Assembly (NCBI GenBank): GCA_027923505.1
Contig: BROI01000039.1
Span: 62,001-126,000 of the forward strand
Length of the DNA: 64,000 nucleotides
DNA from: Mayamaea pseudoterrestris
Taxonomy: Eukaryota
Direction of reading: 5' to 3'
Position 1 is the stretch's first letter, and the number at the start of each line of letters is the position of its first letter. This document shows positions 7,640 through 64,000 of this stretch, in pieces. The notes beneath the pieces were generated by a model. It made no database searches and was not told the origin of the DNA. It saw nothing but the letters and a program-made list of their open reading frames with translations. Made by a program: the position numbers and the translations under genes.

Positions 7640-8017
7640 TTGTGACGCAGTTTTCACTGGCACTTGTTTCGTATTATTGCCTCAATGACGTAGTTTTCAC
7701 TGGAACTCGTTTCGTATTATTACCTCAATGACGTCGTTTTCACTGGCACTCGTTTCGAACTATTGCCTCATGACGTATTTGACACTGGCACTCGTTTCGT
7801 AATATTGCCTTAAAACGTATTTGACACTGGCACTCGTAACAACTATTGCCTTGTGACGGGATTGAAAATATCACTCGTTTGACTATTGCCTTGTGACGTA
7901 ATTGACACTGGCACTTGTTTCGTACTATCGCCTTGTGACGTAATTGACACTGGCACTCGTTTCGTATTATTGCCTTTTGACGTAATTGACACTGGCACTC
8001 GTTTCGCGTTGACGTCA
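7640..8017. repeat. ~42-bp minisatellite (~9 units, consensus TGACGTAATTGACACTGGCACTCGTTTCGTAYTATTGCCTTG), copy 1
   Basis: Visible tandem units. TGACGT occurs at 7686, 7729, 7771, 7894, 7936, 7978 and 8010, with 42-43 bp spacing between adjacent intact units. Confidence 0.9.
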
Positions 8018-8116
8018 TCAACGGTTTTGCATGCCAACGTCTCGACCATGGCACAAATTCACCGCAACACGCCTCGCGTCCTACTCTCACTTGCAGGGCT
8101 ACTGTAATCTACCACC

Positions 8117-9024
8117 ATGCCTACATCGTACAAAAATTCATTCACGGCTAGTCTCCGTGAACGCCTCCATCTCGATCGCTCTCGCATTACCGAATGGGCC
8201 GAGCATGAAAAGGAGCATATTGACGTTCTAGCCGAGCGCCATCGATCGCAGGCCATGGAAAAGCAGGCATCCTTGGATGCATCCATGACGCAATATTTGA
8301 CGCTTAAAATGCAAGCCGACTGCAAGGTCCAGGAAGCGGTTCAGGCTCAGGGAACTATTGAAGAGTTGCAAGGGCAATCAGAGGAGCGGTCGCATGAGAT
8401 TGCTGCTCTTGAAGACAAATTAAACGAGCACCAAACAGCAATGCGGGGTAAGGAAAAAGGAAGTAAATTGGAATAAATGTAGATTGGCTCAGAATCTCAT
8501 ATTGCTTGGATTATATCTGTCTCTCCAGAACTCCGACTGGATTTGATTGACGAGAAGCATGCTGTCCAGTCGGCTAGACGAGGTTTGGAGGAAACGCAGA
8601 CGAGCCCCAACGCGGAGCTTGACATAATTCAGCGACATATCAAGCGCTTCAATTTTCTTGGTATTGATTTTGAGAGTTCCGAGAACAGCGTATTGCGGTG
8701 AGTGCCTTTGATTCACCTCCTGCTTGTGTGGCTGACTCCGTAACCTTTTTCAACACGAATTTGTACTAACGCGCACCCTTCTCTTGCCGCAGTTTCATCT
8801 TTACTCTCATTGATCCCAATAATCCTGAAAAAGAGTTTTGGATAAAACTGACAACCAACGACGAGGATGACTGGGTAGTCACGGATTACGAGCCGGGCTT
8901 ACACGAAGCTTTGGTCGATGAATGCTTGAACGAATTGAATGACGTCGGAGATGGACTACTGCAGTTTGTCAGGAGCATACGCCAACTCTTTGTTGCGAGC
9001 ATAAACAACAAAGAGGAGGAGTGA
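8117..9024 (+). CDS. SPC25: Kinetochore Ndc80-complex subunit Spc25, 3 exons (introns 8448-8528, 8698-8792), copy 1
   Basis: N-terminal coiled coil. The spliced C-terminus FLGIDFESSENSVLRFIFTLIDPNNPEKEFWIKL...WVVTDYEPGL...LNELND..DGLLQFVRSIRQLF matches the Spc25 RWD pattern. TACTAAC branch point at 8764. Confidence 0.85.
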
Positions 9025-9167
9025 TGGACACAATGTAGCGTTGCATGTGTAACTGCATTTGCAGGTTGTCGTCGGCAGCAAATACGAAGCTTACGTGCAG
9101 TAGATAATTATTAATGGTTTTGAATTATATGCTTGCAAGTTTTTGGTAGTAGCTGGGTTTCTATTAT

Positions 9168-9743
9168 TCAAAAGGTTCCGACAAGGAAACCAAAAACCTC
9201 CAAGTCTTCAATAGCAAAGATTGTCTCATCACACAAGGGCTCGTTGTTGAACGTGACGCAATGGCCAGTCGTACCGATCTGGAAGTGCCGCTCAATCACC
9301 AAGCCAAATGCAGTCTGTCCAAGGTCATCGCTGCCTCCTCCAAAAGCTATCCGTTGATTATTTGCATCGCATAGTTGTACAAACCGATTGACGCCGGACC
9401 ATTTATACGGAATGACAGTGCCGTCATACATCTTGTACAAACAGGCCGATGGACCGCCAACAAATTGAGGTGCGTTCTGCCATTCAGCATCGGCAAACGC
9501 CCCTAACAAGGACCCCTTGGTGGTCCGAATAACGATCAGTGTACGAGACTGACCCTTGACGCACTCCATAAAGGCCGCGAAGGAATCTCCGTCGCGCGAG
9601 AGGCGATACAGTCGTCTCCATGGACAGTAAGTAATTCCCTTTGGTATGATCAGCTCAGCGATTTGCTGCATCTCTTTGGTGGAAAGCAGGTACGCATACT
9701 GATCATCATCATTGTCTTTCACGACGCGGACAGGAGGAATGTA
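9168..9743 (-). pseudogene. 5'-truncated duplicate of the TLDc half of the ALG8-TLDc ORF, created by the duplication breakpoint
   Basis: Identical to 13106-13681. The upstream in-frame sequence comes from the start of duplication copy 2, not from ALG8. Confidence 0.75.
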
Positions 9744-9870
9744 GCACAATCCAAGTGTGCCGCAAACCCGGAGAGCCTGGGGAGATTGATGGTGCGACAA
9801 GCCGACTGCCTTTCATTTTTCAAAGCAAACCACACGACGCAAAGCATCAACAAGCAAGCGTCTGTTAGTC

Positions 9871-10403
9871 ATGTCGAATTCGAATTACCCTCCAACACTG
9901 CATAACCATATTCTGCATTTACTGGAGGATCAGAAGCAGCAGCGCGAGGAGATTCCCGACAGGAAACGATTCGGCGTCTCGGCCGCAAGTTTACTTCTTA
10001 CACACAAGAAACGGCGGCTGACTGAGACGAAACTTCCTTTTGAACAAGGGAAGGAAGAATTGAGCGAATCCGTAGTGGGAGAAGATGCCGAGGCTAAAGC
10101 TATGGATGTTCCTGATATGGCCTATTATCAAAAACTAAAGGATGAATGTCAACGCCAAGAACGCGAGCAGGAGCAGTGGGCTCGAGAACGACTGGAAAAG
10201 GTTCATGACCTGCGAAAGGTGTACCTATTCGGCCTCTCAAAAGTGTGAGTGAGCTAGAAAAGCCGAAATGATGCTTTTTGCAAGCGAAACGTCTCTAATC
10301 ATCATGTTGTCTGTCTCACAGATCGGCTCTGCAAGACCTTCGGACTGCTCCAGACGCTATATTGCCTGGAAACATCGTACAGCCGCAGAAGAAGAAGAAG
10401 TAA
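9871..10403 (+). CDS. Small hypothetical protein, copy 2
   Basis: Identical to 5933-6465 (+3938). Confidence 0.6.
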
Positions 10404-10627
10404 ATATGTATTTACATTACTTAATTACAGTTGCTTCCTCCGTACAGTCAGGAAAAGCGCGACATGGTTGCCATCATCGTCGGCGCCCGCCAGCATGTTT
10501 GTGGTGAGCGACTTGCCTTTCGTCGAGTCACCTGTCTTAGCAACGCCTCCACATACCTTCACGCCATTCATAGATAATTCTAAATAATTGTAAATCTTTC
10601 TAATGCAACCAATTGGAGCTGTAGGGA

Positions 10628-10898
10628 TGCTTACGTAGCGCTTGACTCGTCTTTGTAACGGCGAGCTGAACATCAACCGGAAACCATTCATATACTCCTT
10701 CGCCCTCGCTGCCTCATCACATCATGAACCTTTGTCCACGGTTCATTATTGTTTAGAAAATGCTTTGGCCAATTAGTATGCGATAGCGTTTTGGAACGCT
10801 TCGATAGATAGTCTTGCAACAAGCCGACACATACTTGGATGTATTGTGTTCCTCTCACGCTTCTTGATCAGAGCGCCTCTTCCACAGAGAATGCCTCG
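10628..10898 (-). pseudogene. Degraded DUF6824-type remnant, copy 2
   Basis: Identical to 6690-6960 (+3938). Confidence 0.55.
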
Positions 10899-11577
10899 AT
10901 TAGTGTACGGTAACGATACTGAGTCTTTGCCAGTAAGAGATTCTGTTGTTGAGTGCTGCAAGGGTGCATGGTTGCCGCTGTATCGTGGTGGGCAACCAGC
11001 GGATGAACATGATTCACCGTGGGTTGTATAATGGAAGAAATGATGCCGGAACATCGTGTTTTCCCGTTATCTTGTTTCCGTTGTTTGATATCGCAAGAGA
11101 TTGGCCTCAAAGAGCAAGCTAAGGCCTGCCCCTCTTGTGCCTGCAACCGATTCGTCAACTATACACGTTGGTTTGTCCGCCATATTCCATATTCAACTCA
11201 ATGCACGCGGTCGCTTCCATTGGCACGCAGCATAGTTCGAATTGATGCCTGGCTGCTCGTTGACATGGCAGCTGGTTAATGTGTTGGCGCCGAGAGTTGC
11301 ATGTTCTGCGTACTTTGGAAGAAATACGAGATAATGACGAATGGCGAGGCATCGTCGTCGTCGCCGCCAGCGAATCATGCATTGGGTCTACAAAATCCGA
11401 CATGCCGCTAAACATTGTTTTAATTTCACCACGTTTTCCGAGGCTCAGCCAGTGACAAACTCCTTTCTTGCTGCCGATGTGCTCAGGTCGATCCGCCACC
11501 AAGTGGTTCATGGATCTTGGATGATGGCGAGAATCTTTCGCGATACATCGTCACAGCGGTTCTGCATGGCTATTGTC

Positions 11578-11955
11578 TTGTGACGCAGTTTTCACTGGCA
11601 CTTGTTTCGTATTATTGCCTCAATGACGTAGTTTTCACTGGAACTCGTTTCGTATTATTACCTCAATGACGTCGTTTTCACTGGCACTCGTTTCGAACTA
11701 TTGCCTCATGACGTATTTGACACTGGCACTCGTTTCGTAATATTGCCTTAAAACGTATTTGACACTGGCACTCGTAACAACTATTGCCTTGTGACGGGAT
11801 TGAAAATATCACTCGTTTGACTATTGCCTTGTGACGTAATTGACACTGGCACTTGTTTCGTACTATCGCCTTGTGACGTAATTGACACTGGCACTCGTTT
11901 CGTATTATTGCCTTTTGACGTAATTGACACTGGCACTCGTTTCGCGTTGACGTCA
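11578..11955. repeat. ~42-bp minisatellite, copy 2
   Basis: Identical to 7640-8017. Confidence 0.9.
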
Positions 11956-12054
11956 TCAACGGTTTTGCATGCCAACGTCTCGACCATGGCACAAATTCAC
12001 CGCAACACGCCTCGCGTCCTACTCTCACTTGCAGGGCTACTGTAATCTACCACC

Positions 12055-12962
12055 ATGCCTACATCGTACAAAAATTCATTCACGGCTAGTCTCCGTGAAC
12101 GCCTCCATCTCGATCGCTCTCGCATTACCGAATGGGCCGAGCATGAAAAGGAGCATATTGACGTTCTAGCCGAGCGCCATCGATCGCAGGCCATGGAAAA
12201 GCAGGCATCCTTGGATGCATCCATGACGCAATATTTGACGCTTAAAATGCAAGCCGACTGCAAGGTCCAGGAAGCGGTTCAGGCTCAGGGAACTATTGAA
12301 GAGTTGCAAGGGCAATCAGAGGAGCGGTCGCATGAGATTGCTGCTCTTGAAGACAAATTAAACGAGCACCAAACAGCAATGCGGGGTAAGGAAAAAGGAA
12401 GTAAATTGGAATAAATGTAGATTGGCTCAGAATCTCATATTGCTTGGATTATATCTGTCTCTCCAGAACTCCGACTGGATTTGATTGACGAGAAGCATGC
12501 TGTCCAGTCGGCTAGACGAGGTTTGGAGGAAACGCAGACGAGCCCCAACGCGGAGCTTGACATAATTCAGCGACATATCAAGCGCTTCAATTTTCTTGGT
12601 ATTGATTTTGAGAGTTCCGAGAACAGCGTATTGCGGTGAGTGCCTTTGATTCACCTCCTGCTTGTGTGGCTGACTCCGTAACCTTTTTCAACACGAATTT
12701 GTACTAACGCGCACCCTTCTCTTGCCGCAGTTTCATCTTTACTCTCATTGATCCCAATAATCCTGAAAAAGAGTTTTGGATAAAACTGACAACCAACGAC
12801 GAGGATGACTGGGTAGTCACGGATTACGAGCCGGGCTTACACGAAGCTTTGGTCGATGAATGCTTGAACGAATTGAATGACGTCGGAGATGGACTACTGC
12901 AGTTTGTCAGGAGCATACGCCAACTCTTTGTTGCGAGCATAAACAACAAAGAGGAGGAGTGA
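12055..12962 (+). CDS. SPC25: Spc25, copy 2
   Basis: Identical to 8117-9024 (+3938). Confidence 0.85.
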
Positions 12963-13105
12963 TGGACACAATGTAGCGTTGCATGTGTAACTGCATTTGC
13001 AGGTTGTCGTCGGCAGCAAATACGAAGCTTACGTGCAGTAGATAATTATTAATGGTTTTGAATTATATGCTTGCAAGTTTTTGGTAGTAGCTGGGTTTCT
13101 ATTAT

Positions 13106-15292
13106 TCAAAAGGTTCCGACAAGGAAACCAAAAACCTCCAAGTCTTCAATAGCAAAGATTGTCTCATCACACAAGGGCTCGTTGTTGAACGTGACGCAAT
13201 GGCCAGTCGTACCGATCTGGAAGTGCCGCTCAATCACCAAGCCAAATGCAGTCTGTCCAAGGTCATCGCTGCCTCCTCCAAAAGCTATCCGTTGATTATT
13301 TGCATCGCATAGTTGTACAAACCGATTGACGCCGGACCATTTATACGGAATGACAGTGCCGTCATACATCTTGTACAAACAGGCCGATGGACCGCCAACA
13401 AATTGAGGTGCGTTCTGCCATTCAGCATCGGCAAACGCCCCTAACAAGGACCCCTTGGTGGTCCGAATAACGATCAGTGTACGAGACTGACCCTTGACGC
13501 ACTCCATAAAGGCCGCGAAGGAATCTCCGTCGCGCGAGAGGCGATACAGTCGTCTCCATGGACAGTAAGTAATTCCCTTTGGTATGATCAGCTCAGCGAT
13601 TTGCTGCATCTCTTTGGTGGAAAGCAGGTACGCATACTGATCATCATCATTGTCTTTCACGACGCGGACAGGAGGAATGTAGTCTACATCATCAATTTCA
13701 TCTGGCTTCACTGCAATTGAAAAATCCTTAATAGAAGTTGCGGTTGCATTGGCGACAACGTCATGGACGCTACAATAAATTAGCATGTTGGTTGTTAGCC
13801 TTGCAAAGCACTGAATGAGGCCGGCGGCACATGCCAAACTTGTCACCGCTAAGGGTGCGAATTCCATGCGACCCCAAAATGATATGGGAAGCCCCTCCAA
13901 CATAACAATAACAGCAAACACACCCACTAGAGATACTCCAACCCATGCCTTTTCTGTGTTGCTGGTTCGTCCGACGAATGCGTATAGTGCAGCCATGTAG
14001 GCCATATAGCTCGTCAACTTTAGAAGGAATTCCCTCGGCTCAAACAGGAGCGGAAACAAGCCCAACAATCCCCATGCCGTGGACTCCCACAGCAGTAGTG
14101 TATATTGCTTGTCCAAGGCAGCTAGAAACGTCAGTAGCACAAGTGTCGTCATGATTGCCTTTTCGTGAACGTGGTAGGCAGTCAGGAACGACACCATGGC
14201 CGAGTACGCGAGCGAAAGTAGCAGAAGATGATTGTCGCGTTGCGCGGCCGCCATCCATGCCGCTTTGGCGCCAATCATGAGAAAGAGAAGCATGATCATG
14301 CCGACAATGAAAGGAGAAACATCTGGCAGCGACGCCTGAAACAGCTTGGCAAACACCTTGTCGATGGCCTTGTAAACAGCCCAAACGTTGCCAGCCCAGT
14401 AGTCGTGAACTAGGCCCCGACCAAACGGAAAGAGTCTCGAAGCAATTTGCTTCACTAGCAAAGTCGGCTGCGGCGACGTCATGAGCAGCGGCAAAAAGGG
14501 CGTCATTAAACAATGCAACGTCCCCACTCCCAGTAGCAACAGTCGCTCAATGCTGAATTTGTTCTGCACAAAGCAGAACCTTCTCAGTAAATAGGCAAAA
14601 TACCAGAGCGCCAGTGTCAAGTACAAGTGTTTGAGCGTCAAGAGAATGGCAAATAAGGCGGCACCGACGAGCTGGTAAATGTCGGATGCAGCCGTTGGTT
14701 TGCCGCATCGTAGCTCGAGCTTATTCGCTTGTAGCAGACACGCCACCGATAAGAACAAGACTCCCAACAGCAAACCATTGTATTGAAAGTGGACATGATC
14801 CAGCCATATTAGTCCAGGATTAAGAACTGTGAAGAGAAAGCCAGGCATGCTCATGCTTGCCTCCGACGATTCGACAGCCACTGCCATGGTCCCAGCTCCC
14901 AGCCACAAGACAAGGTCGCCTACGATAACAGTTGATCTCATGAATGCGACGCATCGATTCGATATGGAATCTTTTAGTTCATTGTCATTTAGTAGCTCCA
15001 AACAAGTTTCGTCCAATATGAAACGTTGCAGCAACGTGCGTGTCACGTAGTTGTTGGCGAACGCACTTTCCAGAAAGGCAAAGCCGGGTGGATAGTCGAG
15101 CGTATGCTTCGTTGATACATAAACGTCGTCAAAGTACCATTCGCTCATTGGTAAATGCTTCGTCACTGCCTTCCAATGTCGATGGACGAGAAAATCAGTG
15201 GAATAGTAGGATGGAAAGAGGAGAATTTTGCTGCTGGTTGCAATGAGAAATGTGCAAATTAAAAGCGACTTGTTACTGACAGCAAACGTCAT
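13106..15292 (-). CDS. ALG8: ALG8-like dolichyl-P-Glc alpha-1,3-glucosyltransferase (ALG6/ALG8 family), in frame with a C-terminal TLDc domain
   Basis: YYSTDFLVHRHWKAVT...TLDYPP, DHVHFQYNG, RLFPFGRGLVHDYWAGN and YHVHEKAI motifs with many TM helices. The last ~190 aa (WRRLYRLSRDGDSF...GAFADAEW...FGGG...EDLEVF) are TLDc. Confidence 0.85.
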   Translation of the reverse strand: MTFAVSNKSLLICTFLIATSSKILLFPSYYSTDFLVHRHWKAVTKHLPMSEWYFDDVYVSTKHTLDYPPGFAFLESAFANNYVTRTLLQRFILDETCLELLNDNELKDSISNRCVAFMRSTVIVGDLVLWLGAGTMAVAVESSEASMSMPGFLFTVLNPGLIWLDHVHFQYNGLLLGVLFLSVACLLQANKLELRCGKPTAASDIYQLVGAALFAILLTLKHLYLTLALWYFAYLLRRFCFVQNKFSIERLLLLGVGTLHCLMTPFLPLLMTSPQPTLLVKQIASRLFPFGRGLVHDYWAGNVWAVYKAIDKVFAKLFQASLPDVSPFIVGMIMLLFLMIGAKAAWMAAAQRDNHLLLLSLAYSAMVSFLTAYHVHEKAIMTTLVLLTFLAALDKQYTLLLWESTAWGLLGLFPLLFEPREFLLKLTSYMAYMAALYAFVGRTSNTEKAWVGVSLVGVFAVIVMLEGLPISFWGRMEFAPLAVTSLACAAGLIQCFARLTTNMLIYCSVHDVVANATATSIKDFSIAVKPDEIDDVDYIPPVRVVKDNDDDQYAYLLSTKEMQQIAELIIPKGITYCPWRRLYRLSRDGDSFAAFMECVKGQSRTLIVIRTTKGSLLGAFADAEWQNAPQFVGGPSACLYKMYDGTVIPYKWSGVNRFVQLCDANNQRIAFGGGSDDLGQTAFGLVIERHFQIGTTGHCVTFNNEPLCDETIFAIEDLEVFGFLVGTF

Positions 15293-38332: not shown

Positions 38333-38531
38333 AGTAGTTGTCATGAGTCCCGGGAAAATCAAAGTTTTTGGCACTGTAAGCTCAACAGTAGTCATGAGTC
38401 ATTGAAAATCGAAGTTTTTGGCACTGTACGCTTAACAGTAGTTGTCATGAGTCCCGGGAAAATCAAAGTTAATGGCACTGTAAGCTCAACAGTAGTCATG
38501 AGTCATTGAAAATCAAAGTTTTGGCACTGTT
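38333..38531. repeat. ~50/54-bp tandem repeat (4 units arranged as a 104-bp dimer)
   Basis: GTCATGAGTC...GAAAATCAAAGTTTTTGGCACTGT repeated four times, alternating CCGG and ATT variants. Confidence 0.85.
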
Positions 38532-48133: not shown

Positions 48134-50257
48134 TTAAAGATCCACTGTATCATGCAAATTATACGTTCGTCGAGCGTTCCTCGGAATATCGCTCGCTCGC
48201 TGTGGATTGGTTGGTATAAAGGTGACGCCCCGTTGCCGCTTGAGCTCGCACGATTCGCAGTGCGGCGATGAGCACCAGTGGTGATCGGCATGTTGAATGC
48301 GATCCTGCGAGTCCACCTCTATGTTTTCATCCTCGTTCATAAAGTCCTCGTCAAATGTACGGTCCAGTCGATTGTTGTTTTTAACTCTTGACGCTGCATA
48401 GACCGGTTGCACTTCAACTCCGTCGCCATTGTTCGAGTAGTCCGATGTCAGAATGGAGTCATCTTCGCCTACTACATGCGCCATGCGCTTTTGCTGATAC
48501 GGAGTGCTGCTGTAAGCACTGGAACTATGCAGCATGCTTTCGTCCTCCTCGTCATCGGTATTGGCCGCCTTGAGCAAGCTATTGTCTTCGCGGAAGCGCC
48601 TGCCGCGGCGGTTCGCGGCAAAGACGGACGCCAGCACCACCACCAGCACGCTCAAGGTGACAGCCACGGCGGCGCCAGCGGAAATGCCACCCGCGCCAGG
48701 TTCCACGTTGCTTGGTCCCTGAATGCCCGACGTGCCGTCATCGTCGTTGGTATCGTCATCGCGACCCGATGCATCGTCATTATTGTCAAGGTCATCGTCG
48801 TTGGACGAGTCTCCGCCACCTTCCTGAACCGGTGGCGTACCATAAACACTCTTCGTCGCCAGTGAGCTCACAACGTCATTGCCTTGCACGTCAAGATTGG
48901 CGCTCATAATGGCCGTCTCGAGCGAGTTGGGAAAGCCGCTCAAATTGCCGACAGAATTGTCGTAATAAGCAGTGACGCGACTCCTTGTCGTGACGCAAAC
49001 AGTCTTGCCGTCGGATGCAATTCCAAACTCGCTGCACTCGTCTGTGGGCGCAGTAGTGAAAAGAGAGAATCGTGTGAGTTTAGAATGGGATGCGAATCTA
49101 AAACGACATCGTTTCATTCAATTGAATCACTTACTAAACTCATCCACTTGCAGCGACCCAAAGACAACGTTAACAATCGTAGCTTCCTCCTGCGAGTCTG
49201 TATTCTGCAGGTACCGCAGTCGCCGGCGTCCATTGCTATTGTTTCTATCACTATTTTCGTCGCTTGCGGCGTCACTACAATTAGTCAATGTGGGTGCCAC
49301 TTGCGTCTGCAGCGCCAGTCGCAACTCGTCCAAGACTTGCTCGACGGATGCCGTGGACGACACCGCCAAGCCAAGCTGCAAGTCAAAGGTGGTTGACGAG
49401 GACGAAGCGGAGCTGCTAACAAACGTTTCATCCGCCACTTTGTCGCAGGCAGTCTTTGGTGTAGCCGTGGGACGACTCGTTGGGGATGCACTTGGTCTAC
49501 CGGTACGCGTCGTCGGTTCCTTGCTTGGAGCAAACGTTGCTTCCGCTTCGGCTCTACCCGCAGTTGGAGCTACTGTTGATGTTTCAAAAACACTTGGTGT
49601 CGGAAAGGGAGTCGTCATTGTTGGAGTAGTCATGGAAGGTGCCATGACTGGTGGCGTGGTGTAACTCGACGCTGCAGTTGGTGCAGGTGTGCCGTCGCCT
49701 TGAAGTCCAGGTGATATTGTAGGTTCGCCGCGTCCAATGAGTGTACTGTCGTCGTCATCGGCATTTACTTCGGGAACACTTGTTCCATCAGTGCCGCCTC
49801 CTCCAGTTCCATCAGTCTTTCCTTCATTATTGTCTGGAGGAGGAGGCGGCGGTGGAAGCGGTCTACTCCCGGCCGATCCGCTGCTACTGGAGATTTCGCG
49901 ACAAAGTCGAGGCGGCGGCCCCTTCTTCTTGGACGCCTTTGCTTGCTTGAGTGAAGCTCCTTTGAGTTGCTTGACGCAATCAGTTGTCAAAGGAGGCGTT
50001 CCCTTGGGCGGTGCAGCTGCTTGAAAGGCGCGACTCAGTACTTGCAGCGGATTCTGTGGAGTGGCAATGACGACCTCATTATTGTCAACGTGAAGTTTAC
50101 GACTAAATTGTTCGTGTTCGTCGTCTTGTCGGGAATAGTCATGGCGTACTATTGCATCGACCGATGTTACTGATAGTTGTTGAGGTTCGCCGCTTGCATT
50201 GAGCGAGTTCCATGATAGAAGAAGCAACCCGAGTAATTGCAGAGATTGTCGCATCAT
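48134..50257 (-). CDS. Type I membrane/cell-surface protein (signal peptide, Pro/Thr-rich stalk, single TM), intron 49134-49042
   Basis: Signal peptide, PT-rich region, RRRLR processing-like motif, TM AGAAVAVTLSVLVVVLASVFAA followed by NRRGRR, and a C-terminal H.C.S..C..C motif. Confidence 0.75.
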
Positions 50258-50617
50258 TCACTGTCAGGTAGTCTCCTTATTCCAATCAAGTATTACTGTA
50301 TAAACTTTGCAGGGATGTTGACGCTAGCAACGACGACGAGGACGTTCATTCCAGAGTCGTTGAGGACGTGTGCGTCAACAGGCGGATGAAAATTTCGTTG
50401 GCAGTCATCGCGCACGCAAATCGTGTGCACGTCCATGGGCTCGGGAAAATGGCGGGTCACTTTGTGGCGGTCATTGTCCGTTGGGCGAGCGTGTCGGGTT
50501 GTGCTGTGTGCGAAGATAGTCGTATCGGTACTAAACATCGGAACGGGACTGATTCCAGCGTCGGAACGAGCACCGTCCGATTCCTTCGTTCCAACAGCAT
50601 GAACATCAACTTTAACT

Positions 50618-52015
50618 ATGGCAGCAGCAACGACAAGACCTATATGCGCTTGGGCGCTGACTCTGTGGATGCTTGCATCTTGTATTCATGACGCGAGCGC
50701 CTTTGCCAATGTCAATAGTAGCAAGCGACAATCACTCGGCGTCGCCCGAGCAGCAGCAGCATCCGATCTGGGAAGCACCGTCGTTAGCAAACATCACTAC
50801 GACGTTGTCAAGGTTGATTTGGAAGATGGAAGAGACTATCCCATTTACATTGGAACGAAATTTGCAAATGACGAAGGTACGTAGTGTGGCATTGACTCCC
50901 ATGCAGACTACTTGCATTGCTTCTTTGCTCATTCATTTTCGAAAAATTGCCGTGCCACAACTACAGCCGCATCAATACTACAATCGCATATTCACGGAAA
51001 CAAGGTTCTCATTGTCACGAACGATCGCATTGCACCAATGTACCTTGACAAGTACACGCAATTGCTAGCTTCCAATCCTCAATTATCCGTCGACACGTTG
51101 GTCATTCCAGACGGCGAGCAGCACAAGAACTTTGACGTATTGCAAAGCATACTCGACAAGTGTTTGGAGAATAGTTTGGATCGCAAGGCGACACTCGTTG
51201 CCCTGGGCGGCGGTGTCATTGGTGACATGGTGGGTTTTGCGGCGGCCATTTACCAGCGCGGCGTCAACTTTGTGCAAATACCCACCACCGTCATGGCCAT
51301 GGTTGACAGCAGTGTCGGAGGCAAGACGGGGGTGAACCATCCAATGGGTAAAAACATGATTGGCGCGTTTCATCAACCTCAATGTGTTTTTGTTGACACT
51401 GATACACTAGCGACCTTGCCGGATCGGGAGCTGTGTTCGGGTATTTCGGAAATTATCAAGTACGGACTTATCAGGGATGCTGCATTCTTCGAGTGGCAGG
51501 AGGAGCACATGGATGAGTTGCTGCAACGAAACCCTGAGGCGCTGCGGTATGCCATCACAAGGTCATGCCAAAACAAGGCAGCCGTTGTCAAGGCTGACGA
51601 AAAGGAGGCTGGGCTTCGTGCAACGCTGAACTTGGGTCATACGTTTGGACATGCGATTGAGAATGGGTCTGGCTACGGCACTTGGCTACACGGTGAAGCC
51701 GTCGCCATTGGAACCGCCATGGCTACGAGCATGTCGGCGCGACTGGGCTGGATTGACACGAGCTTGGTGAAGCGAGTTTACGACATATTGCACCGGGCCA
51801 AGCTACCAACGGAACTACCATTGGACTCACCCATGAACCGCGACAATTTTCTAAGGCTCATGTCTGTTGACAAAAAGGTGGCCAATGGGCAGTTGCGGTT
51901 AATTTTGCTCAAGGGCGAACTGGGCGAATGCGTCTTTACAGGCAACTTCGACAATGAAGCTATGATTGATACTGTGGATGAATTTGTGGCTGAATGTGGA
52001 GCCATTGCAAAGTAG
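50618..52015 (+). CDS. aroB: 3-dehydroquinate synthase, plastid-targeted (intron 50877-50966)
   Basis: ASAFAN presequence; ALGGGVIGDMVGFAAA, PTTVMAMVDSSVGGKTGVN, LNLGHTFGHAIE, HGEAVAIG and DKK. Confidence 0.95.
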
Positions 52016-52119
52016 CAACAATATACTAACTCTATTTACAAGTATGAGTAGTAAAGTCTTTGTGATAGTTAAAAGGTATGTCAGTCAGATCCCGTTGCTA
52101 CACTGTTGCGGGACTATGT

Positions 52120-55100
52120 TCTCAGCCTGCAGATGCCTTGGCATTCAAAACGCACCTACAGCAGGCCATGTATATACCCAAATGACACCAGAATGGTGCT
52201 AACATCATTATTCAGGCTGCGCTACAAGATGGTAGGCTTGGCTGGTGTCTCAGGGCATGGCTTTGTATTTGGTGACAACTTGTCACCAGTCTCAGCCTGC
52301 AGATGCCGTGACATTCAAACGCCCCTACAGCAAGCCCTGTAGGTGCCCAAAATACACCAGAATGGTGCCAACGTCATTGTTCAGGCTGCGCTACAAGATG
52401 GCAGGCTTGGCTGGTGTCTCAGGGGATGGCAATGATATTGGTGACAACTTGTCACCAGTCTCAGCCCGCGGATGCCGTGACATTCAAACGCCCCTACAGC
52501 AGGCTATGTATACACCCAAATGACACCAGAATGGTGCCAACATCATTATTCAGGCTGCGCTACAAGATGGTATGCCTGGCTAGTGTCTGAGGGGATGGCA
52601 ATGTTATTGGTGACAACTTGTCACCAGTCTCAGATTACTGATGCCGTGACATTCAAATGCCCCTACAGCAGGCCATGTATACACCCAAGCTACACCAGAA
52701 TGGTGCCAACATCAATATAAAAGCTGCGCTACAAGATGGTATGCCTGGCTGGTGTCTCAGGGGACGGCAATGATATTGGTGACAACTTGTCACCAGTCTC
52801 AGCCTGCAGATGCCATTACATTCAAACGCGCCTACAGCAGGCCATGTATAAACCCAAATGACACCAGAATGGTGCTAACAACATTATAAAACCTGCGCTA
52901 CAAGATGGTATGCCTGGCTAGTGTCTCAGGGGACGGCAATGATATTGGTGACAGATGCCGTGACATTCAAACACCCCTACAGCAGGCCATGTATACACCC
53001 AAATAACACCATAATGGTGCCAACGTCATTATTCAGGCTGGGCTACAAGATGGTATGCCTGGCTAGTGTCTCAGGGGACGGCAATGATATTGGTGACAAC
53101 TTGTCACCAGATGCCCGGCATTCAACCTACAGCAGGCCATGTATATACCCAAATGACACAAGAATGGTGCCAACATCATTTTTCAGGCTGCGCTAAAAGA
53201 TGATATGCCTGGCTAGTGTCTCAGGGCATGGGGATAGACAACTTGTCACCAGTCTCAGCCTGCAGATGCCGTGACATTCAAACGCCCCTACAGCAAGCCC
53301 TGTAGGTGCCCAAAATACACCAGAATGGTGCCAACGTCATTATTCAGGCTGCGCTACAAGATGGTAGGCTTGGCTGGTGTCTCAGGGGATGGCAATGATA
53401 TTGGTGACAACTTGTCACCAGTCTCAACCCGCTGATGCCGTGACATTCAAACGCCCCTACAGCAGGCCATGTATACACCCAAATGACACCAGAATGTTGC
53501 CAACATCATCATTCAGGCTGCGCTACAAGATGGTATGCCTGGCTAGTGTCTGAGGGGATGGCAATGTTATTGGTGACAACTTGTCACCAGTCTCAGATTA
53601 CTGATGCCGTGACATTCAAATGCCCCTACAGCAGGCCATGTATACACCCAAATGACACCAGAATGGTGCCAACATCATTATTCAGGCTGCGCTACAAGAT
53701 GGTATGCCTGGCTAGTGTCTCAGGGGATGGCAATGATATTGGTGACAACTTGTCACCAGTCTCAGCCTGCAGATGCCATTACATTCAAACGCGCCTACAG
53801 CAGGCCATGTATAAACCCCAATGACACCAGAATGGTGCTAGGGTAACTTCATTATACAACCTGCACTACAAGATGGTATGCCTGGCAAGTGTCTCAGGGG
53901 ACGGCAATGTGATTGGTGAGTAGTTCTCACCAGTCTCATCCCACAGATGCCGTGACATTCAAACACCCCTACAGCAGGCCATGTATACAACCAAATGATA
54001 CCAGAATGTTGCCAACATCATTATTCAGGCTGCGCTACAAGATGGTATGCCTGACTAGTGTAGTGTCTCAGGGGACGGCAATGATATTGGTGACAACTTG
54101 TCACCAGTCTCAGCCTGCAGATGCCGTGACATTCAAACGCCCCTACAGCAGGCCATGTATACACCCAAATGACACCAGAATGGTGCCAACTTCATTATAC
54201 AACCTGCGCTACAAGATGGTTTGCCTGGTTAGTGTCTCAGGGGATGGCAATGTGAGTGGTGAGTAGTTCTCACCAGTCTCATCCCACAGATGCCGTGACA
54301 TTCAAACGCCTTTACAGCAGGCCATGTATAAACCCATATAATACCAGAATGGTGCCAACATCATTGTTCAGGCTGCGCTACAAGATGGTAGGCTTGGCTA
54401 GTGTCTCAGGGGACGGCAATGATATTGGTGACAACTTGTCACCAGTCTCAGCCTGCAGATGCCGTGACATTCAAACGCCCCTACAGCAGGCCATGTATAC
54501 ACCCAAATGACACCAGAATGGTGCCAACATCATTATTCAGGCTGCGCTACAAGATGGTATGCCTGGCTAGTGTCTCAGGGGACGGCAATGATATTGGTGA
54601 CAACTTGTCACCAGTCTCAGCCTGCGGATGCCGTGACATTCAAACGCCCCTACAGCAGGCCATGTATACACCCAAATGACACCAGAATGGTGCCAACATC
54701 ATTATTCAGGCTGCGCTACAAGACGGTATGCCTGGCTAGTGTCTCAGGGGACGGCAATGATATTGGTGACAACTTGTCACCAGTCTCAGCCTGCAGATGC
54801 CATGACATTCAGACGCCCCTACAGCAGGCCATGTATACACCCAAATGACACCAGAATGGTGCCAACATCATTATTCAGGCTGCGCTACAAGATGGTATGC
54901 CTGGCTAGTGTCTCAGGGGACGGCAATGATATTGGTGACAACTTGTCACCAGTCTCAGCCTGCAGATGCCGTGACATTCGAACGCCCCTTCAGCAGGCCA
55001 TGAATATATCCAAATGACACCAGATTGGTGCCAACATTAATCATTATTCAGGCTGCGCTACAAGATGGTATGCCTGGCTAGTGTCTCAGGGGACGGCAAT

Positions 55101-58100
55101 GATATTGGTGACAACTTGTCACCAGTCTCAGCCTGCAGATGCCGTGACATTCAAACGCCCCTTCAGCAGGCCATGTATACACCCAAATGACACCAGAATG
55201 GTGCCAACATCATTATTCAGGCTGAGCTACAAGATGGTATGCCTGGCTAGTGTCTCAGGGGACGGCAATGATATTGGTGACAACTTGTCACCAGTCTCAG
55301 CCTGCAGATGCCGTGACATTCAAATGCCCTTACAGCAGGCCATGTATACACCCAAATGACACCAGAATGGTGCCAACATCATTATTCAGGCTGCGCTACA
55401 AGATGGTATGCCTGGCTAGTGTCTCAGGGGACGGCAATGATATTGGTGACAACTTGTCACCAGTCTCAGCCCGCGGATGCCGTGACATTCAAACGCCCCT
55501 ACAGCAGGCCATGTATACACCCAAATGACACCAGAATGGTGCCAACATCATTATTCAGGCTGCGCTACAAGATGGTATGCCTGGCTAGTGTCTCAGGGGA
55601 CGGCAATGATATTGGTGACAACTTGTCACCAGTCTCAGCCCGCGGATGCCGTGACATTCAAACGCCCCTACAGCAGGCCATGTATACACCCAAATGACAC
55701 CAGAATGGTGCCAACATCATTATTCAGGCTGCGCTACAAGATGGTATGCCTGGCTAGTGTCTCAGGGGACGGCAATGATATTGGTGACAACTTGTCACCA
55801 GTCTCAGCCTGCAGATGCCGTGACATTCAAACGCCCCTACAGCAGGCCATGTATACACCCAAATGACACCAGAATGGTGCCAACATCATTATTCAGGCTG
55901 CGCTACAAGATGGTATGCCTGGCTAGTGTCTCAGGGGACGGCAATGATATTGGTGACAACTTGTCACCAGTCTCAGCCTGCAGATGCCGTGACATTCAAA
56001 CGCCCCTACAGCAGGCCATGTATACACCCAAATGACACCAGAATGGTGCCAACATCATTATTCAGGCTGCGCTACAAGATGGTATGCCTGGCTAGTGTCT
56101 CAGGGGAGGGCAATGATATTGGTGACAACTTGTCACCAGTCTCAGCCCGCAGATGCCGTGACATTCAAACGCCCCTACAGCAGGCCATGTATACACCCAA
56201 ATGACACCAGAATGGTGCCAACATCATCATTCAGGCTGTGCTACAAGAGGGTATGCCTGGCTAGTGTCTCAGGGGACGGCAATGATATTGGTGACAACTT
56301 GTCACCAGTCTCAGCCTGCAGATGCCGTGACATTCAAACGCCCCTACAGCAGGCCATGTATACACCCAAATGACACCAGAATGGTGCCAACATCATTATT
56401 CAGGCTGCGCTACAAGATGGTATGCCTGGCTAGTGTCTCAGGGGACGGCAATGATATTGGTGACAACTTGTCACCAGTCTCAGCCTGCAGATGCCGTGAC
56501 ATTCAAACGCCCCTACAGCAGGCCATGTATACACCCAAATGACACCAGAATGGTGCCAACATCATTATTCAGGCTGCGCTACAAGATGGTATGCCTGGCT
56601 AGTGTCTCAGGGGACGGCAATGATATTGGTGACAACTTGTCACCAGTCTCAGCCCGCGGATGCCGTGACATTCAAACGCCCCTACAGCAGGCCATGACTA
56701 TACCCAAATGACACCAGAATGGTGCCAACATCATTATTCAGGCTGCGCTACAAGATGGTATGCCTGGCTAGTGTCTCAGGGGACAGCAATGATATTGGTG
56801 ACAACTTGTCACCAGTCTCAGCCTGCAGATGCCGTGACATTCAAACGCCCCTACAGCAGGCCATGTATACCCAAATGACACCAGAATGGTGCCAACATCA
56901 TTATTCAGGCTGCGCTACAAGATGGTATGCCTGGCTAGTGTCTCAGGGGACGGCAATGATATTGGTGACAACTTGTCACCAGTCTCAGCCTGCAGATGCC
57001 GTGACATTCAAACGCCCCTACAGCAGGCCATGAATATACCCAAATGACACCAGAATGGTGCCAACATCATTATTCAGGCTGCGCTACAAGATGGTATGCC
57101 TGGCTAGTGTCTCAGGGGACGGCAATGATATTGGTGACAACTTGTCACCAGTCTCAGCCCGCAGATGCCGTGACATTCAAACGCCCCTACAGCAGGCCAT
57201 GAATATACCCAAATGACACCAGATTGGTGCCAACATCATTATTCAGGCTGCGCTACAAGATGGTATGCCTGGCTAGTGTCTCAGGGGACGGCAATGATAT
57301 TGGTGACAACTTGTCACCAGTCTCAGCCTGCAGATGCCGTGACATTCAAATGCCCCTACAGCAGGCCATGTATACACCCAAATGACACCAGAATGGTGCC
57401 AACATCATTATTCAGGCTGCGCTACAAGATGGTATGCCTGGCTAGTGTCTCAGGGGACGGCAATGATATTGGTGACAACTTGTCACCAGTCTCAGCCCGC
57501 AGATGCCGTGACATTCAAACGCCCCTACAGCAGGCCATGACTATACCCAAATGACACCAGAATGGTGCCAACATCATTATTCAGGCTGCGCTACAAGATG
57601 GTATGCCTGGCTAGTGTCTCAGGGGACGGCAATGATATTGGTGACAACTTGTCACCAGTCTCAGCCTGCAGATGCCGTGACATTCAAACGCCCCTACAGC
57701 AGGCCATGAATACACCCAAATGACACCAGAATGGTGCCAACATCATTATTCAGGCTGCGCTACAAGATGGTATGCCTGGTTAGTGTCTCAGGTGACAGCA
57801 ATGATAGTGGTGACGACTTGTACCAGTCTCAGCCTGCAGATGCCGTGACATTCAAACGCCCTCACAGCAGGCCATGTATACACCCAAATGACACTAAAAT
57901 GGTGCCAACATCATTATTCAGGCTGCGCTACAAGATGGTATGCCTGGCTAGTGTCTCAGGGGACGGCAATGATATTGGTGACAACTTGTCACCAGTCTCA
58001 GCCCGCAGATGCCGTGACATTCAAACGCCCCTACAGCAGGCCATGTATACACCCAAATGACACCAGAATGGTGCCAACATCATTATTCAGGCTGCGCTAC

Positions 58101-61100
58101 AAGATGGTATGCCTGGCTAGTGTCTCAGGGGACGGCAATGATATTGGTGACAACTTGTCACCAGTCTCAGCCTGCAGATGCCGTGACATTCAAACACACC
58201 TACAGCAGGCCATGTATACACCCAAATGACACCAGAATGGTGCCAACATCATTATTCAGGCTGCGCTACAAGATGGTATGCCTGGATAGTGTCTCAGGGG
58301 ACGGCAATGTGATTGGTGACAACTTGTCACCAGTCTCAGCCTGCAGATGCTGTGACATTCAAACGCCCCTACAGCAGGCCATGTGTACACCCAAATGACA
58401 CCAGAATGGTGCCAACATCATTATTCAGGCTGCGCTACAAGATGGTATGCCTGGCTAGTGTCTCAGGGGACGGCAATGATATTGGTGACAACTTGTCACC
58501 AGTCTCAGCCCGCGGATGCCGTGACATTCAAACGCCCCTACAGCAGGCCATGTATACACCCAAATGACACCAGAATGGTGCCAACATCATTATTCAGGCT
58601 GCGCTACAAGATGGTATGCCTGGCTAGTGTCTCAGGGGACAGGAATTGGTGACAACTTGTCACCAGTCTCAGCCTGCAGATGCCGTGACATTCAAACGCC
58701 CCTACAGCAGGCCATGTATACGCCCAAATGACACCAGAATGGTGCCAACATCATTATTCAGGCTGCGCTACAAGATGGTATGCCTGGCTAGTGTCTCAGG
58801 GGACGGCAATGATATTGGTGACAACTTGTCACCAGTCTCAGCCTGCAGATGCCGTGACATTCAAACGCCCCTACAGCAGGCCATGTATACACCCAAATGA
58901 CACCAGAATGGTGCCAACATCATTATTCAGGCTGCGCTACAAGATGGTATGCCTGGCTAGTGTCTCAGGGGACGGCAATGATATTGGTGACAACTTGTCA
59001 CCAGTCTCAGCCTGCAGATGCCGTGACATTCAAACGCCCCTACAGCAGGCCATGTATACACCCAAATGACACCAGAATGGTGCCAACATCATTATTCAGG
59101 CTGCGCTACAAGATGGTATGCCTGGCTAGTGTCTCAGGGGACGGCAATGATATTGGTGACAACTTGTCACCAGTCTCAGCCTGCAGATGCCGTGACATTC
59201 AAACGCCCCTACAGCAGGCCATGTATACACCCAAATGACACCAGAATGGTGCCAACATCATTATTCAGGCTGCGCTACAAGATGGTATGCCTGGCTAGTG
59301 TCTCAGGGGACGGCAATGATATTGGTGACAACTTGTCACCAGTCTCAGCCTGCAGATGCCGTGACATTCAAACGCCCCTACAGCAGGCCATGTATACACC
59401 CAAATGACACCAGAATGGTGCCAACATCATTATTCAGGCTGCGCTACAAGATGGTATGCCTGGCTAGTGTCGCAGGGGATGGCAACGATATTGGTGACAA
59501 CTTGTCACCAGTCTCAGCCTGCAGATGCCGTGACATTCAAACGCCCCTACAGCAGGCCATGTATACACCCAAATGACACCAGAATGGTGCCAACATCATT
59601 ATTCAGGCTGCGCTACAAGATGGTATGCCTGGCTAGTGTCTCAGGGGACGGCAATGATATTGGTGACAACTTGTCACCAGTCTCAGCCTGCAGATGCCGT
59701 GACATTCAAACGCCCCTACAGCAGGCCATGTATACACCCAAATGACACCAGAATGGTGCCAACATCATTATTCAGGCTGCGCTACAAGATGGTATGCCTG
59801 GCTAGTGTCTCAGGGGACAGCAATGATATTGGTGACAACTTGTCACCAGTCTCAGCCTGCAGATGCCGTGACATTCAAACGCCCCTACAGCAGGCCATGT
59901 ATACACCCAAATGACACCAGAATGGTGCCAACATCATTATTCAGGCTGCGCTACAAGATGGTATGCCTGGCTAGTGTCTCAGGGGACGGCAATGATATTG
60001 GTGACAACTTGTCACCAGTCTCAGCCTGCAGATGCCGTGACATTCAAATGCCCCTACAGCAGGCCATGTATACACCCAAATGACACCAGAATGGTGCCAA
60101 CATCATTATTCAGGCTGCGCTACAAGATGGTATGCCTGGCTAGTGTCTCAGGGGACGGCAATGATATTGGTGACAACTTGTCACCAGTCTCAGCCTGCAG
60201 ATGCCGTGACATAAAACGCCCCTACAGCAGGCCATGTATACACCCAAATGACACCAGAATGGTGCCAACATCATTATTCAGGCTGCGCTACAAGATGGTA
60301 TGCCTGGCTAGTGTCTCAGGGGACGGCAATGATATTGGTGACAACTTGTCACCAGTCTCAGCCTGCAGATGCCGTGACATTCAAACGCCCCTACAGCAGG
60401 CCATGTATACACCCAAATGACACCAGAATGGTGCCAACATCATTATTCAGGCTGCGCTACAAGATGGTATGCCTGGCTAGTGTCTCAGGGGACGGCAATG
60501 ATATTGGTGACAACTTGTCACCAGTCTCAGCCTGCAGATGCCGTGACATTCAAACGCCCCTACAGCAGGCCATGTATACACCCAAATGACACCAGAATGG
60601 TGCCAACATCATTATTCAGGCTGCGCTACAAGATGGTATGCCTGGCTAGTGTCTCAGGGGACGGCAATGATATTGGTGACAACTTGTCACCAGTCTCAGC
60701 CTGCAGATGCCGTGACATTCAAACGCCCCTACAGCAGGCCATGTATACACCCAAATGACACCAGAATGGTGCCAACATCATTATTCAGGCTGCGCTACAA
60801 GATGGTATGCCTGGCTAGTGTCTCAGGGGACGGCAATGATATTGGTGACAACTTGTCACCAGTCTCAGCCTGCAGATGCCGTGACATTCAAACGCCCCTA
60901 CAGCAGGCCATGTATACACCCAAATGACACCAGAATGGTGCCAACATCATTATTCAGGCTGCGCTACAAGATGGTATGCCTGGCTAGTGTCTCAGGGGAC
61001 GGCAATGATATTGGTGACAACTTGTCACCAGTCTCAGCCTGCAGATGCCGTGACATTCAAACGCCCCTACAGCAGGCCATGTATACACCCAAATGACACC

Positions 61101-64000
61101 AGAATGGTGCCAACATCATTATTCAGGCTGCGCTACAAGATGGTATGCCTGGCTAGTGTCTCAGGGGACGGCAATGATATTGGTGACAACTTGTCACCAG
61201 TCTCAGCCTGCAGATGCCGTGACATTCAAACGCCCCTACAGCAGGCCATGTATACACCCAAATGACACCAGAATGGTGCCAACATCATTATTCAGGCTGC
61301 GCTACAAGATGGTATGCCTGGCTAGTGTCTCAGGGGACAGCAATGATATTGGTGACAACTTGTCACCAGTCTCAGCCTGCAGATGCCGTGACATTCAAAC
61401 GCCCCTACAGCAGGCCATGTATACACCCAAATGACACCAGAATGGTGCCAACATCATTATTCAGGCTGCGCTACAAGATGGTATGCCTGGCTAGTGTCTC
61501 AGGGGACGGCAATGATATTGGTGACAACTTGTCACCAGTCTCAGCCTGCAGATGCCGTGACATTCAAACGCCCCTACAGCAGGCCATGTATACACCCAAA
61601 TGACACCAGAATGGTGCCAACATCATTATTCAGGCTGCGCTACAAGATGGTATGCCTGGCTAGTGTCTCAGGGGACGGCAATGATATTGGTGACAACTTG
61701 TCACCAGTCTCAGCCTGCAGATGCCGTGACATTCAAACGCCCCTACAGCAGGCCATGTATACACCCAAATGACACCAGAATGGTGCCAACATCATTATTC
61801 AGGCTGCGCTACAAGATGGTATGCCTGGCTAGTGTCTCAGGGGACGGCAATGATATTGGTGACAACTTGTCACCAGTCTCAGCCTGCAGATGCCGTGACA
61901 TTCAAACACCCCTACAGCAGGCCATGACTATACCCAAATGACACCAGAATGGTGCCAACATCATTATTCAGGCTGCGCTACAAGATGGTATGCCTGGCTA
62001 GTGTCTCAGGGGACGGCAATGATATTGGTGACAACTTGTCACCAGTCTCAGCCTGCGGATGCCGTGACATTCAAACGCCCCTACAGCAGGCCATGTATAC
62101 ACCCAAATGACACCAGAATGGTGCCAACATCATTATTCAGGCTGCGCTACAAGATGGTATGCCTGGCTAGTGTCTCAGGGGACGGCAATGATATTGGTGA
62201 CAACTTGTCACCAGTCTCAGCCTGCAGATGCCGTGACATTCAAACGCCCCTACAGCAGGCCATGTATACACCCAAATGACACCAGAATGGTGCCAACATC
62301 ATTATTCAGGCTGCGCTACAAGATGGTATGCCTGGCTAGTGTCTCAGGGGAAGATATTGGTGACAACTTGTCACCAGTCTCAGCCTGCGGATGCCGTGAC
62401 ATTCAAACGCCCCTACAGCAGGCCATGTATACACCCAAATGACACCAGAATGGTGCCAACATCATTATTCAGGCTGCGCTACAAGATGGTATGCCTGGCT
62501 AGTGTCTCAGGGGACGGCAATGATATTGGTGACAACTTGTCACCAGTCTCAGCCCGCAGATGCCGTGACATTCAAACGCCCCTACAGCAGGCCATGTATA
62601 CACCCAAATGACACCAGAATGGTGCCAACATCATTATTCAGGCTGCGCTACAAGATGGTATGCCTGGCTAGTGTCTCAGGGGACGGCAATGATATTGGTG
62701 ACAACTTGTCACCAGTCTCAGCCTGCAGATGCCGTGACATTCAAACGCCCCTACAGCAGGCCATGTATACACCCAAATGACACCAGAATGGTGCCAACAT
62801 CATTATTCAGGCTGCGCTACAAGATGGTATGCCTGGCTAGTGTCTCAGGGGACGGCAATGATATTGGTGACAACTTGTCACCAGTCTCAGCCCGCAGATG
62901 CCGTGACATTCAAACGCCCCTACAGCAAGCCCTGTAGGCACCCAAATGACACCAGAATGGTGCCAACATCATTATTCAGGCTGCGCTACAAGATGGTATG
63001 CCTGGCTAGTGTCTCAGGGGATGGCAATGATATTGGTGACAACTTGTCACCAGTCTCAGCCTGCAGATGCCGTGACATTCAAACGCCCCTACAGCAGGCC
63101 ATGTATACACCCAAATGACACCAGAATGGTGCCAACATCATTATTCAGGCTGCGCTACAAGATGGTATGCCTGGCTAGTGTCTCAGGGGACGGCAATGAT
63201 ATTGGTGACAACTTGTCACCAGTCTCAGCCTGCAGATGCCGTGACATTCAAACGCCCCTACAGCAGGCCATGTATACACCCAAATGACACCAGAATGGTG
63301 CCAACATCATTATTCAGGCTGCGCTACAAGATGGTATGCCTGGCTAGTGTCTCAGGGGACGGCAATGATATTGGTGACAACTTGTCACCAGTCTCAGCCT
63401 GCAGATGCCGTGACATTCAAACGCCCTTCAGCAGGCCATGTATACACCCAAATGACACCAGAATGGTGCCAACATCATTATTCAGGCTGCGCTACAAGAT
63501 GGTATGCCTGGCTAGTGTCTCAGGGGACGGCAATGATATTGGTGACAACTTGTCACCAGTCTCAGCCTGCAGATGCCGTGACATTCAAACACCCCTACAG
63601 CAGGCCATGTATATACCCAAATGTCACCAGAATATTGCTAACATCATCATTCCGGCTGCGCTACAATATGGTATGCCTGGCTAGTGTCTCAGGGGACGGC
63701 AATGATATTGGTGACAACTTGTCACCAGTCTCAGCCCTGCAGATGCCATGACATTCAAACGCACCTACAGCAGGCCATCTAGATCCACACATAACGCCAC
63801 AATCTTGCCATCATCATCATTCAGGCTGCGCTACAAGATGGTATGCCTGGCTAGTGTCTCAGGGGACGGCAATGATATTGGTGACAACTTGTCACCAGTC
63901 TCAGCCTGCGGATGCCGTGACATTCAAACGCCCCTACAGCAGGCCATGACTATACCCAAATGACACCAGAATGGTGCCAACATCATTATTCAGGCTGTGC
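52120..64000. repeat. 169-bp satellite DNA array (~70 head-to-tail monomers, continuing past the window end)
   Basis: Monomer TGACACCAGAATGGTGCCAACATCATTATTCAGGCTGCGCTACAAGATGGTATGCCTGGCTAGTGTCTCAGGGGACGGCAATGATATTGGTGACAACTTGTCACCAGTCTCAGCCTGCAGATGCCGTGACATTCAAACGCCCCTACAGCAGGCCATGTATACACCCAAA. The ORF track recurs every 169 bp. Confidence 0.98.

Follow-up and report, generated by a model that had tools for sequence, protein, structure and literature searches.

The window considered here, meaning the whole stretch of DNA that was analyzed, comprises 64,000 bp from Mayamaea pseudoterrestris (assembly GCA_027923505.1, contig BROI01000039.1, positions 62,001 to 126,000 of the forward strand), and all feature coordinates given below refer to it. 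The window consists of a 52,119-bp flank carrying genes, followed from position 52120 to the window end (64000) by a head-to-tail array of a 169-bp unit. This array covers 11,881 bp, which is a minimum length, since it is still running where the window ends. Its structure, its boundary with the flanking gene, its abundance in public sequencing runs, and its possible position on the chromosomes are the subject of this analysis.

The unit length is supported by several measures. Tandem Repeats Finder detects a period of 169 at 52120-52953 (4.9 copies, 88% matches) and again at 53126-63997 (64.4 copies, 96% matches, 0% indels, score 20055), the two blocks being separated by an irregular stretch of period 145 (52807-53409). 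When the array is compared with itself, a shift of 169 gives a match of 0.83, and the remaining 19 lags within 160-179 give 0.21-0.27. In the same way, an anchor motif occurs 68 times in the array, and 55 of the 67 spacings between its occurrences are exactly 169. An alignment of 65 monomers of 150-190 nt, leaving out the partial last unit and three longer intervals with truncated monomers or no anchor match, gives a consensus of 169 nt with 86 G+C (50.9% GC).

The array becomes more uniform with distance from the gene. The degenerate proximal edge (52120..54445, + strand, approximately 2.3 kb) holds 11 full monomers in addition to truncated ones, and these full monomers, which start between 52120 and 54277, show 6-23 differences from the consensus. 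The homogeneous interior (54446..64000, + strand, running past the window end) provides 54 aligned monomers with 0-10 differences, 20 of which are identical to the consensus. Units with internal deletions of around 24 nt are located at the edge, within 52797-53252. An edge block of around 600 bp starting at 52290 has a copy 963 bp further on. The first 507 nt of the two are 96.8% identical, so that they are closer to each other than either is to the consensus (93-95%). An earlier reading of the letters of this stretch, here called the original prediction, had described at least 11.9 kb of 169-bp monomers, nearly identical in the interior and degenerate at the edge, with 86 of 169 positions G or C by hand count, and had taken them for a satellite with a nucleosome-sized unit; the measurements agree with it on each of these points.

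No higher-order repeat was detected in the interior, where the mean pairwise difference stays at 3.47-3.70 for monomer distances of 1 to 12. The monomer likewise shows no internal sub-repeat, its best lag giving 57 matches where the null mean is 55.9. The sole inverted repeat of at least 7 nt in the consensus is a 19-nt palindrome with 9-bp arms and a 1-nt center, which lies at monomer positions 150-168 (60674..60692 in one example copy) and forms a hairpin in the DNA fold. Its conservation is not above chance in a permutation test (p = 0.52), in which positions 1-21 are biased by the anchor used. The fold of the whole monomer is ordinary (z = -1.0, with 35 of 200 shuffles folding equally well), and the WW-dinucleotide periodicity is strongest at approximately 12 nt rather than at approximately 10.

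The array is non-coding: 169 is not a multiple of 3, its open reading frames (ORFs) are limited to approximately 113 aa, the 113-aa frame has no homologue (in a protein search among lengths of 62-198 aa), and Rfam gives no match, either at the gathering score for the window or at E<=1 for four monomers. With head-to-tail units of constant length, many copies, and no protein or structured RNA product, the element is satellite DNA.

The gene next to the array encodes a plastid-type 3-dehydroquinate synthase (DHQS). Its last exon (50963..52015, + strand, with the stop codon at 52013-52015) lies in the unique flank of the array and contains the Pfam domains DHQ_synthase (6e-51) and DHQS_C (4.1e-52). 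A spacer of 104 bp (52016..52119), read directly from the sequence, separates the stop codon from the first monomer. The exon product is identical to the M. pseudoterrestris protein MPSEU_001103800 at 350/350 residues after the first three aligned ones, which differ and are probably located upstream of a splice site, and the next named matches, at 77-78% identity, come from other diatoms. This identifies the host as a raphid pennate diatom, as the original prediction had assumed when it spoke of a diatom. The remainder of the 52-kb flank is gene-dense and encodes, among others, a myosin, an ALG6/8 protein, a thiolase, and a homoserine dehydrogenase. Pfam families are matched by 8 of the 18 long flank ORFs scanned, none of them related to transposons. 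An origin of the monomer from the flanking DNA was considered and found no support, since the whole 52,119-bp flank holds similarity to it at chance level only (best matches of 11-13 nt, E 0.21-3.3).

The boundary of the array is also a boundary in base composition. The observed/expected (o/e) ratio of CpG is 0.30-0.41 in 12/12 of the 1-kb windows of the array, which are copies of one 169-bp unit and not independent samples, against 0.85-1.37 in 52/52 windows of the flank. The step coincides exactly with the array boundary, and the ten interior windows (54001-64000) have values of 0.33-0.41. The consensus monomer contains 4 CpGs where 10.9 are expected. Among the interior monomers, 37 of the 85 substitutions exchange CpG and TpG/CpA, and per site C>T/G>A changes are 10.4-fold more frequent at CpG than at other C or G positions. 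Depletion of CpG combined with CpG-biased transitions is the pattern that cytosine methylation leaves. Diatoms are known to methylate their repeats, and the array, which shows both features relative to the neighboring DNA, would therefore qualify as putative DNA-methylated heterochromatin. If so, the sharp CpG step, at 104 bp from an essential gene, would show in a short natural sequence where heterochromatin ends and euchromatin begins.

The genome-wide abundance of the satellite was estimated from public sequencing data. Eight runs from two studies, coded here with an X and a number, were considered, and the Logan contigs of four of them (X1, X2, X4, and X5) were placed on 48500-53600. In X1, the summed contig word depth is 0.96-5.2 million in nine satellite bins and has a median of approximately 145 in unique bins; in X5, the corresponding values are 0.09-0.67 million and approximately 32. 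The unique reference consists of 19 bins from 48500 to 51748. The satellite bins thus reach approximately 10^3-10^4 times single-copy depth in runs from both studies, which indicates a genome-wide family. In agreement with this, 83,918 of 555,133 X1 contigs and 14,957 of 182,933 X5 contigs fall on the placed stretch, nearly all on its satellite part. The original prediction had named an array at one locus only as an outcome that would refute it, and these counts speak for the opposite. Taken at face value, the depths correspond to 0.5-6 Mb of satellite per bin, and up to approximately 13-26 Mb with the bins summed, but a depth summed over contigs does not measure copy number, and the claim made here is limited to a repetition of thousands-fold.

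The runs X2 and X4, which belong to the same study and carry other organism labels, contain the satellite but cover the unique flank only patchily and at trace level, with depths of 0.6-3.6 in a few bins. Satellite contigs of X4 run into sequencing-adaptor sequence. The satellite in these two runs is probably a carry-over of an abundant repeat between libraries and is uninformative about other species. Exact 28-mer scans for the monomer gave 0 matches each in metagenome, prokaryote-genome, and viral contigs.

The same contigs allow the junction between gene and satellite to be inspected. One X1 contig of 162 nt covers 52021-52182 with 0 differences and bridges the transition from unique to satellite DNA, although X1 is possibly the source of the assembly itself, in which case the bridge would perhaps not be independent. 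Just before the array, segment 51749-52090 has approximately 2-3 times (X1) or 1.6 times (X5) the neighboring depth and 2-4 variant contigs, which suggests that the boundary segment is itself a low-copy repeat. The array boundary plus a fragment of the DHQS gene (51749-52119) thus seems to be present at several loci, as would be expected if array edges had been copied between loci together with some of their flank.

As a separate observation, all four X1 contigs have a G at position 51874, where the window has an A. Similar disagreements occur at some other flank positions, together with several one-base indels. These are differences between strains or haplotypes, or residual errors of the long-read assembly.

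A second kind of junction was found away from the window. At 52163, corresponding to monomer position 44, one contig each in X1, X5, and X2 extends leftwards from the satellite into CCCTAA units, the loose part beyond this point being 10, 41, and 75 letters long, respectively. The units are perfect beside the satellite and degenerate further out. A junction between the satellite and telomere-type repeats is therefore present somewhere in the genome. Adjacency to telomeric repeats, which the original prediction had named as speaking against a centromere, is thus found in three runs for some copy of the satellite, and not for the array in the window. In addition, one X1 contig (depth 208) joins monomers of opposite strands head to head (52199 / 53150), indicating that arrays can switch polarity.

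The best account of these data, which has about an even chance of being correct, is that the window shows the gene-proximal edge of a lineage-specific, high-copy family of heterochromatic satellite DNA located at least partly at chromosome ends. The family is read as cytosine-methylated constitutive heterochromatin and, on this view, resembles a subtelomeric satellite rather than a centromere. Chromosome-end heterochromatin is favored over a centromere by the junction with telomere-type repeats, by the low copy number of the boundary segment, by the gene density of the flank, by the balanced GC content, and by the phylogenetic bracket that the nearest sequenced relatives form. Under this account, most arrays would be terminal and would have no role in the kinetochore. 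The blocks would separate the telomeres from the gene-dense body of the chromosomes, and some of them, at chromosome ends, would directly adjoin the TTAGGG/CCCTAA telomere. Unequal crossing-over and gene conversion would keep the interior monomers nearly identical, and monomers at the edge would escape this homogenization and then decay. Methylation of the repeats would drive the decay of CpG to TpG/CpA. Finally, the blocks may be exchanged between chromosome ends, taking short segments of flank along.

Subtelomeric satellites with nucleosome-length units are well known from other organisms, such as TGRI from tomato (approximately 162 bp), HRS60 from tobacco (approximately 180 bp), or the Sultan arrays from Chlamydomonas. 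They occupy the space from the telomere repeat to the first genes as head-to-tail arrays of kilobases to tens of kilobases; their interiors are homogenized and their sequence is lineage-specific. The Mayamaea satellite has a comparable, though possibly interstitial, junction of monomer and CCCTAA, and genes are present right up to the array. Contrary to these systems, with which it has no sequence relationship, its terminal position applies to at most one junction, which is not that of the window array, and it seems to amount to megabases, which is a lot for a genome of approximately 30 Mb.

Several observations weigh against a position at chromosome ends, in addition to the non-independence of the array windows in the CpG comparison. 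The window does not contain a single double unit of CCCTAA or TTAGGG, and the far end of its array lies beyond 64000, outside the sequence examined. The telomere-type junction rests on a single contig per run. Among these runs, X2 has only traces of the organism, and the assembly itself may derive from X1 or X5. The order of perfect and then degenerate CCCTAA units also fits an interstitial telomere-like stretch. Furthermore, relative to + monomers the telomere-type repeats are found 5', which in the window is the side of the unique DNA, and so the window array cannot be a simple terminal array of the junction's polarity, an objection that is weakened by the polarity switch seen in the head-to-head contig. 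Finally, the face-value amount of satellite is large for the subtelomeres of a genome of approximately 30 Mb.

The phylogenetic part of the argument relies on the published genome and on two relatives. The M. pseudoterrestris assembly comprises 30.6 Mb in 41 contigs with an N50 of 1.07 Mb, against a k-mer estimate of 27.2 Mb for the genome, and the chromosome number is given as unknown (PMC9724779). Repeats make up 19% of this assembly and are mainly Copia elements; the words "satellite" and "telomer" are absent from the main text, and the repeat table of the supplement lists 0 for Satellites and 2.26 Mb as Unclassified (PMC9724779). In the phylogeny of the same article, M. pseudoterrestris clusters with Phaeodactylum tricornutum, followed by Fistulifera solaris (PMC9724779), so that these two species, which belong to the same order (Naviculales), are the nearest sequenced relatives and bracket Mayamaea. 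P. tricornutum is described as having AACCCT telomeres and unique subtelomeres on its 25 chromosomes (PMC9266582), and for F. solaris CCCTAA is reported at 82/88 chromosome ends (10.1101/2021.11.10.468027). The repeat at the satellite junction has the telomere unit of these two relatives.

In the literature searched, no description was found of a major satellite, a satellite centromere, or a satellite subtelomere in any diatom, and the 169-bp satellite of M. pseudoterrestris has apparently gone undescribed until now. To our knowledge, the diatom genomes studied so far have been described as lacking satellite-type centromeres.

The conservation of the locus was also compared with environmental relatives. 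Relatives of DHQS were encoded in 552 of 599 metagenome stretches, of which the best 80 of 552 were kept. When 7 of these best 80 loci were compared with 18 ORFs of the window, only DHQS itself and one weak upstream match, in locus L001, were found. Ordinary ORFs follow the gene in L001 and in a second locus, L011, and relatives with a 78-81% identical DHQS have ordinary gene-bearing DNA downstream, without the 169-bp repeat. Runs of at least three consecutive telomere units occur in none of the best 80 of 552 loci. The lack of the repeat downstream of DHQS in these relatives suggests that the block is lineage-specific and was recently gained at this site, and it says nothing about chromosomal position.

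A recent, lineage-specific gain would also fit a position-neutral selfish element, forming large interstitial blocks of heterochromatin along the chromosomes, with some of them near telomere-like stretches by chance and with no role at ends or centromeres. This explanation is possible, though it falls clearly short of an even chance. It would account for the heterogeneous boundaries, since the window array has genes where the other junction has telomere-type repeats, and the degeneration of the CCCTAA units further out is compatible with a relic in an interstitial position. The polarity switches and the 523 loose-end rows of the contig placement also point to many junctions and variants, but many of these loose ends are mere variant monomers or sequencing adaptors. 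Against it, the same telomere-type junction appears in runs of two studies and is thus a fixed feature, and satellites of megabase scale in compact genomes usually gather at ends or centromeres.

A looser parallel, to be taken as a lead only, is the 177-bp repeat of Trypanosoma brucei, which forms the bulk of the minichromosomes of this organism. Both are nucleosome-length satellites of a unicellular eukaryote that account for much of its nuclear DNA and show polarity inversions within their arrays. The two are unrelated in lineage and sequence, and there is no evidence for minichromosomes in Mayamaea.

The original prediction had proposed that the array could be a centromeric or pericentromeric satellite, an architecture unlike that of P. 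tricornutum. In such a centromere, the unit would wrap nucleosomes with CENH3, and the kinetochore would be built on one large array in each chromosome. No other repeat seen in this analysis comes near the 169-bp family in abundance, and many plants and animals have their most abundant tandem repeat at the centromere. The resemblance to known centromeric satellites of nucleosome length, such as the primate alpha satellite (171 bp) or CEN178/180 from Arabidopsis, extends to the unit length, the long and highly homogenized arrays, the divergent edges, and the very high copy number. Unlike these, the Mayamaea satellite has a unit of 51% GC rather than an AT-rich one, lacks a higher-order repeat, and abuts an essential gene with one array and telomere-type repeats with some copies.

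The relatives also argue against a centromeric role. In P. tricornutum, sequences working as centromeres have a GC content below 33% and no repeats (10.1101/096016); the original prediction had described the centromeres of this species as short, AT-rich, and non-satellite. The Mayamaea unit, at 51% GC, lies far from this rule of less than 33% for CENP-A recruitment and episome maintenance (10.1101/096016), and the array, being repetitive and of 50.9% GC, does not offer the non-repetitive stretch of at least 500 bp below approximately 33% GC that defines a centromere of this type. Neither does the rest of the 64-kb window, where no low-GC tract was found and the lowest GC of any 500 bp is 40.6%. 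The putative centromeres of F. solaris have 36-42% GC, span 1.4-2 kb, and contain no highly repeated elements (10.1101/2021.11.10.468027). Both bracketing species therefore have centromeres, mapped in P. tricornutum and predicted in F. solaris, of the short, low-GC, repeat-free type, and the Mayamaea element is a satellite of at least 11.9 kb.

The 19-nt palindrome present in each unit could be a candidate protein-binding site, but it is not specially conserved. The existence of a satellite-to-telomere-repeat junction argues against a centromere, but telocentric chromosomes would reconcile the two, and the data would also be compatible with a centromere type that changed recently. The contiguity of the published assembly (41 contigs, N50 1.07 Mb; PMC9724779) would also fit chromosomes broken at internal arrays that cannot be spanned. 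The gene ending 104 bp from the array and the lack of a transposon-rich, pericentromere-like zone in the 52 kb of flank speak against a centromere. On balance, a centromeric or pericentromeric satellite is unlikely, and a shade more doubtful is the specific claim that M. pseudoterrestris swapped the short, AT-rich, sequence-independent diatom centromere for megabase-scale, GC-balanced centromeres made of the 169-bp satellite. Of the original prediction, the centromere finds no support, with the telomere junction, the 51% GC, and the adjacent housekeeping gene leaning against it, and its own reservation that the array might be subtelomeric or interstitial heterochromatin fares better. It is scarcely credible that the array or its junction with the gene is an assembly or sequencing artefact absent from the organism. 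Long-read assemblers can mis-join or inflate satellites, short contigs cannot verify the array length, and X1 differs from the window at flank positions such as 51874, but the repeat has very high depth in runs of two studies, the junction is bridged at 52021-52182 with 0 differences, and the graded edge, the truncated units, and the CpG-type variants resemble evolved sequence.

Should the depth ratios hold even roughly, the genome would be larger than the published 27-31 Mb, and richer in repeats than the published 19%. M. pseudoterrestris has been proposed as a freshwater model diatom, and the 169-bp repeat provides a concrete probe for questions on its centromeres, telomeres, and DNA methylation, as well as a direct test of how far the closest relatives of P. 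tricornutum share its centromere architecture. Should the satellite be centromeric after all, centromeres would have changed type within a single order of diatoms, and one satellite, missing from the assembly, would make up much of the nuclear DNA of a "compact 30-Mb" diatom.

Besides the array, three features of the flank were noted. Between 5800-9750 and the sequence 3,938 bp downstream of it, 3,950 positions show 9 mismatches, defining a tandem duplication of 3,938 bp (5800-13688), which could be a recent duplication or a duplication of the assembly. Both copies carry the same 42-bp minisatellite in 9 copies (7632-8006 and 11570-11944), and no ORF of at least 250 aa is found between 5589 and 13106. 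A single ORF of 728 aa on the - strand (13106-15292) encodes both an ALG6/ALG8 glycosyltransferase domain, at residues 19-497, and a TLDc domain at its C-terminal end (554-723), and may represent an unusual fusion or two genes read through. Finally, a small tandem repeat of 50/104 bp (3.5 and 1.9 copies) is present at 38333-38530, in one of the 500-bp stretches of lowest GC (approximately 41%).

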